From IMG/VR virus record IMGVR_UViG_2671180884_000018: DNA of 6,772 bases. One strand, 5' to 3'. A program made the position numbers and the translations under genes. This document shows positions 1,736 through 4,700 of this stretch, piece after piece (within the stretch, counting starts at the first letter, position 1; the number at the start of each line of letters is the position of its first letter). This stretch comes from a virus. Lineage: Duplodnaviria; Heunggongvirae; Uroviricota; Caudoviricetes. The notes beneath the pieces were generated by a model. It worked only from the letters and a program-made list of their open reading frames with translations. It had not been told where the DNA came from and ran no database searches.

Positions 1736-4700
1736 ATGGGTAAAGGCAGCAGTAAGGGGCATACCCCGCGCGAAGCGAAGGACAACCTGAAGTCCACGCA
1801 ACTGCTGAGTGTGATCGATGCCATCAGTGAAGGGCCGGTTGAAGGTCCGGTGGATGGATTAAAAAGCGTGCTGCTGAACAGTACGCCGGTGCTGGACAAT
1901 GAGGGGAATACCAACATCTCCGGCGTCACGGTGGTGTTCCGGGCAGGTGAGCAGGAGCAGTCACCGCCGGAGGGGTTTGAATCCTCCGGCTCCGAGACTG
2001 TGCTGGGTACGGAAGTGAAATATGACACGCCGATCACCCGGACCATCACGTCGGCAAACATCGACCGTCTGCGCTTTACCTTCGGTGTACAGGCACTGGT
2101 GGAAACCACCTCAAAGGGAGACAGGAATCCGTCGGAAGTCCGCATGCTGGTTCAGATACAGCGTAACGGTGGCTGGGTGACGGAAAAAGACATCACCATT
2201 AAGGGCAAAACCACCTCGCAGTATCTGGCCTCGGTGGTGGTGGATAACCTGCCTCCGCGCCCGTTCAATATCCGGATGCGCAGGATGACACCGGACAGTA
2301 CTACAGACCAGCTGCAGAACAAAACGCTCTGGTCGTCATACACCGAAATCATCGATGTGAAACAGTGCTACCCGAACACTGCACTGGTCGCCATACAGGT
2401 GGACTCGGAGCAGTTCGGCAGCCAGCAGGTGAGTCGTAATTATCATCTTCGCGGGCGCATTCTGCAGGTGCCGTCGAACTATAACCCGCAGACGCGACAA
2501 TACAGTGGTATCTGGGACGGAACGTTAAAACCAGCATACAGCAACAACATGGCCTGGTGTCTGTGGGATATGCTGACCCACCCGCGCTACGGCATGGGGA
2601 AACGTCTTGGTGCGGCGGATGTGGACAAATGGGCGCTGTATGTCATCGGCCAGTACTGCGACCAGTCAGTGCCGGACGGCTTTGGTGGCACGGAGCCGCG
2701 CATCACCTGTAATGCGTACCTGACCACACAGCGCAAGGCGTGGGATGTGCTCAGTGATTTCTGCTCGGCGATGCGCTGTATGCCGGTATGGAACGGGCAG
2801 ACGCTGACGTTCGTGCAGGACCGACCGTCGGATAAGGTGTGGACCTATAACCGCAGTAATGTGGTGATGCCGGATGATGGCGCGCCGTTCCGCTACAGCT
2901 TCAGCGCCCTGAAAGACCGCCATAATGCCGTTGAGGTGAACTGGATTGACCCGAACAACGGCTGGGAGACGGCAACAGAGCTTGTGGAGGATACGCAGGC
3001 CATTGCCCGTTACGGTCGTAACGTCACGAAGATGGATGCTTTTGGCTGTACCAGCCGGGGGCAGGCACACCGCGCCGGGCTGTGGCTGATTAAAACAGAA
3101 CTGCTGGAAACGCAGACCGTGGACTTCAGCGTGGGCGCAGAAGGGCTTCGCCATGTGCCGGGCGATGTCATTGAAATCTGTGATGATGACTATGCCGGTA
3201 TCAGCATCGGCGGGCGCGTGCTGGCGGTAAACAGCCAGACCCGGACGCTGACGCTCGACCGTGAAATCACTCTGCCATCCTCCGGTACCACGCTGATAAG
3301 CCTGGTTGACGGAAGCGGCAATCCGGAACGATACCGATGCCGGATCGCCCTGCTGTCCCCACGCATTTACCGCCCGGACTGTCAGCCTGTAGTTCCCCAG
3401 CGCCAGTTGCCTGAAGCGGTATGTGGTTTCCGCCGTCCGGGCCGTGCTGACCAGCAGCTCACTGCCGTCATCCGCTGCCACGGTCAGGCGAAGCAGGAAA
3501 CTCACGCCCTTCACCACCTTCGGCGTGTCCCAGCGCGCCAGCACCTGATATTCCCCGCTGTCTGCGGTGACTTCGGCGGTCAGGTGCTGCACCGCTGGCG
3601 GCGTGACACCATTCACCGTGCCGCTCTGGTCGCCGTCAAAGTGCGCCCCGTTATCCACGATGGCCTCTTTTTCCGGTACATGCTGCACGGCGGTGATGGC
3701 ATACGTGCCGTCGTCGTTCTCACGGATACTCACGCAGCGGAACAGGCGCTGGCGCAGCGTCGGCAGCTTCAGCCCCCACACGCTGTATTCAGCAACGCCG
3801 TCAGGAACACGGCTCACTTTCACCTTCACGCCGTCGGTGACGGACTGAACCTCCACGCTGACCGGATTGCCGCACCGGCAGCGCCGTCACAGATTGAGCT
3901 GACGCCGGGCTATTTTCAGATAACTGCCACGCCGCATCTTGCGGTTTATGATCCGACGGTACAGTTTGAGTTCTGGTTCTCGGAAACGCGGATTACCGAT
4001 ATCAGGCAGGTTGAAACCACAGCCCGCTACCTTGGCACGGGGCTGTACTGGATAGCCGCCAGTATCAATATCAAACCGGGCCATGATTATTACTTTTATA
4101 TCCGCAGTGTGAACACCGTTGGCAAATCGGCATTCGTGGAGGCCGTCGGTCGGGCGAGCGATGATGCGGAAGGTTACCTGGATTTTTTCAAAGGCAAGAT
4201 AACCGAATCCCATCTCGGTAAAGAGCTGCTGGAAAAAGTAGATCTGACGGAGGATAACGCCAGCAGACTGGATGAGTTTTCGAAAGAGTGGAAGGATGCC
4301 AACGATAAATGGAATGCCATGTGGGCTGTCAAAATTGAGCAGACCAAAGACGGCAAACATTATGTCGCGGGTATTGGCCTCAGTATGGAGGACACGGAGG
4401 AAGGCAAGCTGAGCCAGTTTCTGGTTGCCGCTAACCGTATCGCGTTTATTGACCCGGCAAACGGGAATGAAACGCCGATGTTTGTGGCGCAGGGCAACCA
4501 GATATTCATGAACGACGTGTTCCTGAAACGCCTGACGGCACCCACCATTACCAGCGGTGGCAGTCCTCCGGTATTTTCCCTGACATCAGACGGAAAGCTG
4601 ACCGCTAAAAATGCGGATATCAGTGGCAGTGTGAATGCGAACTCAGGGACGCTCAACAACGTCACGATTAATGAGAACTGTCAGATTAAGGGGAAACTGT

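Follow-up and report, generated by a model that had tools for sequence, protein, structure and literature searches.

The DNA analyzed here is a 6,772-nt stretch (IMG/VR record IMGVR_UViG_2671180884_000018; hereafter the window, whose positions supply the coordinates given below) that carries the tail-tip genes of a lambdoid prophage as one block. Judging from how the phage and E. coli records that match it are annotated, it contains the end of L, then K, I, J and lom, and finally the start of stf, so that the L-K-I-J-lom-stf order around lambda J is also present in this prophage. J, which encodes the tip attachment (host specificity) protein, occupies positions 1736-5134 of the + strand, and according to the list of open reading frames (ORFs) and the corresponding translation it is an uninterrupted gene of 1132 codons. 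Codons 531-709 of this ORF are, however, antisense-derived: an internal segment of the gene is inverted, and the J ORF of the window is a masked pseudogene, i.e., a disrupted member of lambda gpJ.

The inversion was evident from comparison with native J genes, for which the complete genome of E. coli 2012EL-2448 (NZ_CP027586.1) served as the reference. At J codons 531-709 (positions 3326-3862) the window holds authentic J sequence as its codon-aligned reverse complement, and once 3326-3862 is reverse-complemented the window and 2012EL-2448 agree at all but one of 6772 bases, the exception being position 3316. When the whole window was compared with other records, the good phage and E. coli hits covered 92% of its length in two pieces and the remaining 8% aligned on the opposite strand. 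An earlier note, made on this DNA without database searches, had proposed that the segment is inverted relative to J, and its orientation is indeed opposite to that in every other J gene examined. Residues 1-1131 of the native protein align colinearly with lambda gpJ (8iyk_J), whereas the colinearity of the window protein is broken at residues 531-709. The native orientation is therefore ancestral and that of the window derived.

The effect of the inversion on the encoded protein was apparent from its domain content. Ig_J (PF24421, FNIII-1) was detected by Pfam at residues 610-714 of the native protein (E = 5.7e-41) and is lost from the window protein, while the - strand translation of 3326-3862 carries it (E = 2e-39). 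In all, 179 nonsense residues take the place of the last part of the hub region, the linker and nearly the whole of FNIII-1. The composition of this insert is rich in Arg, His and Pro, as the earlier note had described it (R 12.8%, H 8.4% and P 6.1%, vs 5.1%, 1.2% and 4.5% elsewhere in J). The + strand peptide of 3326-3862 gave no Pfam match and no significant PDB match (none better than E = 0.07), and a search of 5.8 billion proteins returned only 40 short hypothetical proteins, with no genuine homologue. Every one of the 40 lies within native J on the minus strand (locus L005, 5528-7360), 36 in the codon-aligned frame; they are shadow ORFs antisense to J, called with differing starts and stops and with neither annotation nor a domain. 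The + strand peptide is nonsense. The two FNIII domains of lambda gpJ help to seal the tail tube in its closed state and move upon LamB binding (PMC11101478). The flipped J product is very probably non-functional.

The 40 shadow-ORF proteins have been deposited as ‘hypothetical’ or ‘uncharacterised’ from E. coli, Shigella and Salmonella, and one of them is found on 69 contigs.

The geometry of the inversion explains why J still resembles a complete gene. An inversion conserves length, so the downstream frame is always retained; the equal 1132-codon length to which the earlier note had pointed is thus automatic for a stop-free inversion and involves no extra coincidence. The breakpoint positions sum to 7188 (3326 + 3862), and the flipped DNA is consequently read in the frame of the exact reverse-complement codons. 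In this codon-aligned antisense frame, stops can come only from sense TTA, CTA or TCA codons. As the earlier note had stated, native codons 531-709 contain none of the three, and translation of the inverted segment yielded the peptide quoted there with no internal stop. A count across native J, of the kind the note had suggested, found 17 antisense-stop codons (13 TCA, 4 TTA and 0 CTA), all of which fall either within codons 1-311 or at codon 718 and beyond. The flipped segment is contained in the antisense-open run of 406 codons that lies between them (J codons 312-717, or 2669-3886 in native numbering). Because this run spans codons 312-717, the window also holds a by-product, a hybrid ORF of 396 residues on the - strand (2666-3856), which opens with ~177 genuine J residues supplied by the flipped piece and continues into the antisense of upstream J.

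Whether the absence of antisense stops reflects chance or selection had been left undecided in the earlier note, and it can now be answered as chance together with local codon bias on the evidence of codon counts, shuffles, alleles and a test of all possible inversions. For a segment with 14 Leu and 12 Ser codons and the codon usage of J, the analytic probability of having no stop is 0.075 (the formula is the same as that in bioRxiv 10.1101/724807), and synonymous-codon shuffling gave 0.06. Within J, 29.6% of the 179-codon windows are free of antisense stops, and 9.6% of all possible 535-nt inversions leave the ORF open. Inversion between perfect repeat pairs of at least 10 nt would leave the ORF open for 4 of 14 pairs; among the repeat pairs with spacers of at least 300 nt it would do so for 1 of 11, which is the observed pair. 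The stop-freeness of the segment is a roughly 1-in-10 to 1-in-20 outcome of chance and local codon bias, and selection is not needed to account for it.

Selection could in principle keep the antisense frame free of stops, either through an antisense gene that overlaps J or through the survival of only those stop-free inversions that avoid polarity on downstream lom and stf. The 406-codon run is somewhat long, exceeding most synonymous shuffles (P = 0.018 under a homogeneous model), and among 137 distinct J alleles the segment has no antisense-stop codon in 128. These alleles are, however, only ~2-10% diverged, which means that their shared stop-freeness is mostly inherited, and a further 7 alleles have one or two antisense stops in the segment, from which it follows that such stops occur and are tolerated. 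The GC content of the segment is 64%, compared with 56% for J, and a high local GC content depletes TTA and TCA by itself; this compositional heterogeneity of J (mosaicism) is likely to be an adequate cause of the 406-codon run. The probability for the segment itself (0.06-0.075) also speaks against selection, as do the inconsistent ends of the unannotated, domain-free antisense ORFs in the databases. A promoter-like site ahead of the antisense frame was sought within 3100-4100 and was not found. Maintenance of the frame by selection is therefore considered very improbable.

The breakpoints of the inversion lie in a short inverted repeat. An inverted-repeat search identified a left arm, GCGGCAATCCGG, at 3315-3326 and a right arm, CCGGATTGCCGC, at 3862-3873, which are perfectly complementary over 12 nt and 535 nt apart. 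Breakpoint placement is resolvable only to these arms, and the strictly inverted core is the 535-nt spacer at 3327-3861; the genuine sense codons of J are on its - strand, where they cover the last part of the hub domains, the linker and FNIII-1/Ig_J, and its + strand gives the stop-free peptide. The right arm is the same as in the native gene. In the closest natives the left arm reads GTGGCAATCCGG, so that their 12-bp repeat has one mismatch and its perfect core (3317-3326) is only 10 nt long. The difference is a T>C change at 3316 (C in the window, T in the closest natives), which is synonymous (AGT to AGC, Ser) and completes the 12-bp perfect repeat. Thus the sole extra substitution in 6772 bases is the very change that gives perfect complementarity of the arms. 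A contig of the flipped lineage has only 5 further single-nucleotide polymorphisms (SNPs) relative to 2012EL-2448 over 18.6 kb, and from 5 SNPs in 18 kb the odds that a chance SNP would fall at 3316 and supply the right base were estimated at ~2 in 10,000. Among the 137 alleles, the left arm has the T form in 63 and the C form in 3, and the right arm CCGGATTGCCGC is present in 112. The breakpoint repeat is not otherwise special, as 14 inverted-repeat pairs that are perfect over at least 10 nt occur in native J.

Four of the five further SNPs fall within 660 bp of the tape-measure gene (1497-2159 of the flipped-lineage contig, L002) and may represent a small recombination tract.

Template switching between inverted repeats that match imperfectly has been described as leaving homogenized arms together with an inverted spacer as its signature (PMC8604942). 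The most likely route to the window allele would be a replication template switch in which the polymerase hopped twice between the arms. In a closely related route, short-homology recombination would be followed by heteroduplex mismatch correction; either route would copy one arm onto the other and so give rise to the T>C change at 3316. We infer that the segment was flipped by template switching and that the T>C change arose together with the flip.

The same one-off inversion could instead have resulted from reciprocal recombination between the 10-bp repeats, whether RecA-dependent or independent, with the T>C change being due to heteroduplex repair or to an unrelated earlier SNP. In 1992, Schofield et al. 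reportedly described spontaneous inversions bounded by short inverted repeats, from E. coli genetics (cited in PMC4272514). The 535-bp spacer, long for a template switch, and the presence of C at 3316 in the three native alleles are both in keeping with reciprocal recombination. A crossover inside the 10-bp core would, however, keep T on the left, and after a crossover outside the core the mismatch would be found in the right arm (CCGGATTGCCAC), contrary to what is observed. Simple crossovers therefore do not fit, and either an extra repair step or the coincidental SNP, with the odds given above, would be needed. Reciprocal recombination is thus possible, though rather unlikely.

The distribution of the flipped allele was examined in public sequence collections. 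The exact 1132-residue flipped protein is present on 113 public contigs of up to 173 kb, which come under several accession series (EEC..., EEQ..., JAHVTT, JAHVOJ, AARFDF) and derive from two or more series of submitters. GCA_021082585.1, GCA_011929145.2 and GCA_021078945.1 are among the carrier assemblies. NCBI lists it as a 1132-residue "host specificity protein J", in line with the earlier note's expectation that gene callers would report an intact J. Three carrier loci were 100% identical to the window and to one another over 15.4 kb and had the same neighbors. The exact native protein is found on 701 contigs, and the flipped form (113 vs 701) thus makes up about 14% of the contigs with this J allele. 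No flipped arrangement turned up among 5426 complete E. coli genomes, with their ~22,500 J-like places, or among 178 further J loci, most of which came from IMG/VR. An inversion-specific junction 24-mer that extends outside the repeat had zero matches in viral, GTDB-representative and metagenome contigs. Further inverted J proteins of full length were also sought with the nonsense peptide as query, which recovered nothing but short ORFs that lie antisense to native J. A search of the literature for the serotype or lineage of the carriers found nothing.

Another junction pattern, GGCAATCCGGAACGATACCGA, was discarded as non-specific: it corresponds to the native right junction read in reverse complement and matched more than 120 ordinary J genes.

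As the carriers found are all draft short-read assemblies, and as the five closest complete genomes (99.8-100% identical) are all in the native orientation, the inversion might be thought an assembly or sequencing artefact that is absent from the DNA. The identical arrangement nevertheless recurs on all 113 contigs across the several accession series, and it is accompanied by the repeat-arm SNP and the 5 other SNPs relative to the complete genome. A de Bruijn assembler should moreover be unable to make junction k-mers longer than the 12-bp repeat unless reads contain them. As for the complete genomes, an even spread of the carriers would predict only ~2 among the 5426, given an assumed figure for all E. 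coli assemblies. An artefact was therefore rejected on the grounds of the multi-contig occurrence and the accompanying SNPs, and is hardly credible; the inverted allele is real.

The same distribution bears on whether the segment is a programmed, reversible ‘recoding intragenic inverton’, in which a site-specific recombinase acting on GGCAATCCGG would give two versions of J and hence phase variation of the tail tip. Intragenic invertons with short inverted repeats, stop-free ‘recoding’ ones included, are known in many bacteria, among them E. coli (PMC10028968), and phage tail fibre genes are classic targets of inversion (PMC4272514). The flipped share of about 14% among contigs with this J allele could be read in the same way. 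Against this, the flipped state is absent from the complete genomes and the other J loci searched although the 10-bp core is common, and all examined flipped copies are sequence-identical. No invertase is annotated in the window, which contains only L' (the end of L), K, I, J, lom and stf' (the start of stf), and no Hin/Gin-type invertase is annotated in the 49-kb prophage, where the only recombinase is the integrase intD, apart from the transposase of an IS3-family insertion sequence (IS). In length the breakpoint repeat does not exceed ~14 other repeats that J contains by chance, neither a domain nor a homologue was found for the flipped peptide, and an arm-perfecting SNP is unexpected under conservative site-specific recombination. 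An invertase-driven switch was rejected because there is no invertase gene nearby and the second orientation was not found among the genomes searched; the chance that the segment is such an inverton is considered very slight.

Only a similarly slight chance is given to a variant of this idea, in which a trans-acting recombinase would flip the J segment at low frequency, the flipped state would have become locked or favored in one clone, and the prophage or its host would gain a second J-derived product. A weaker form of it would have stop-free inversions retained because they avoid polarity on lom and stf. The occurrence pattern instead fits one recent event in one clone, and not a switch.

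The wider prophage offers a reason why such an event could have been tolerated. In 2012EL-2448 the prophage sits between tRNA-Arg/intD and ompT/envY, i.e., at the DLP12 site. In this native relative the IS3-family element interrupts the tail-assembly gene T (NZ_CP027586.1 3779763-3781413; positions 27764-29414 of locus L206). The 172-kb contig of the flipped lineage (L002) starts inside the same IS (1-284) and runs seamlessly into the T remnant, which indicates that the flipped lineage shares the IS3 insertion. Lambda gpG and gpGT are required for tail assembly. With IS3 in gene T, the prophage would thus be unable to make tails and J would be free to decay.

The best explanation for these observations, and one that we regard as very likely, is a one-off flip between short inverted repeats that was then fixed in an already defective prophage at the argU/DLP12 site. 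The 535-bp stretch of J between the two repeats would have flipped once, in one E. coli clone. The positions of the arms would by chance have placed the flipped DNA in the codon-aligned antisense frame, and, as the GC-rich central part of J lacks TTA, CTA and TCA, no stop would have been introduced and the full-length ORF would be accepted as J. With T interrupted by IS3, purifying selection would no longer act on J, and the lesion could persist.

Several points weigh against parts of this explanation. The published template-switch inversions in yeast coding sequences have spacers of 2-5 bp (PMC8604942), and the 535-nt spacer of J far exceeds these examples, so that short-homology recombination with heteroduplex correction stays a serious alternative. 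The T>C change could be an earlier, independent SNP that had already made a 12-bp perfect repeat, given that C occurs in 3 of the 137 native alleles. A single origin is suggested by the identity of the sequences, and the loss of function of the flipped protein stays a matter of probability. Single-sequence AlphaFold models gave a predicted local distance difference test (pLDDT) score of 35 for the + strand peptide and 51 for the native segment, a difference in the expected direction but a weak contrast.

The remaining genes of the window lie on the + strand to either side of J. K, the tail tip assembly protein gene (C40 peptidase), is at 363-1106, as annotated in the identical native locus, and I, which encodes a tail assembly protein, is at 1103-1675 in the annotation of the native locus. 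Downstream of J, the ORF list and annotation place lom (Ail/Lom outer membrane protein) at 5201-5800, and the annotation places the 5' part of the side tail fibre gene stf at 5865-6772, from where it continues past the end of the window. The start of gene I varies by assembly, between 1004-1675 (210 residues, overlapping K) and 1103-1675 (190 residues), which is an inconsistency of annotation only.

The observation and the reading of the earlier note both proved correct. To these the analysis adds the inverted repeat that flanks the segment, the SNP at 3316 that perfects its arms, the automatic nature of the equal ORF length, the public prevalence of the allele as an "intact" J and the fact that the prophage was defective beforehand. 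The allele also exposes a pitfall of annotation: an internal inversion that costs 16% of the protein passes checks of ORF length, frameshifts and stop codons, and the damage is visible only through domain coverage, where Ig_J is missing, or through strand-aware alignment to relatives. This affects calls of prophage completeness and the catalogues of tail and receptor-binding proteins that are drawn from surveillance genomes of Shiga toxin-producing and other E. coli. It is, in addition, a clean natural example of an inversion of several hundred bases between 10-12 bp repeats that bears the mark of arm homogenization. Its biological weight is small, as the prophage had lost its integrity before and there is no sign that the flipped form has a function; nor is it a new kind of system.

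The allele can be placed among systems that are already known. Compared with lambda gpJ (PDB 8IYK, 8XCG), the restored gene is colinear over 1-1131 and has the same set of Pfam domains (FNIII-A_GpJ, Phage-tail_3, Ig_J, Ig_J_second, Phage_Tail_Tip and Ig_GpJ_C), whereas in the window protein residues 531-709 are antisense nonsense and Ig_J (FNIII-1) is gone. Frame -1 antisense ‘shadow’ ORFs in GC-rich genes follow the same stop rule, i.e., the rarity of TTA, CTA and TCA, and the same formula (P = 0.075); what distinguishes J is that the inversion spliced the shadow frame, in frame, into a real gene. The recoding intragenic invertons (Chanin et al., PMC10028968) and the tail-fibre switches (Mu Gin, P1 Cin and e14 Pin) resemble the J allele in that it too is intragenic, lies in a phage tail gene, keeps its frame open and is flanked by inverted repeats. 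Unlike them, it shows no second orientation among related genomes, an invertase is lacking in its vicinity, its alternative protein is not meaningful, and its repeat is at chance level.

Closer parallels are found among inversions that do not switch. The fixed micro-inversion in an antitoxin gene (PMC4272514) is, like the J allele, homogeneous, non-switching and protein-changing, and needs no dedicated invertase. The event in J also behaves like the spontaneous inversions between short repeats that are known in E. coli; it differs from these in its setting, since the J allele comes from natural surveillance isolates rather than from laboratory selections and there is no evidence of a selected phenotype. 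The template-switching events of the Ripley type, which act on quasipalindromes, share with it breakpoints in an inverted repeat, a spacer that is the exact reverse complement and the conversion of one arm (PMC8604942). Set against the template switches of that type in yeast, the inversion in J differs in scale: its spacer is 535 bp rather than 2-5 bp, and it replaced 179 residues rather than one or two (PMC8604942).

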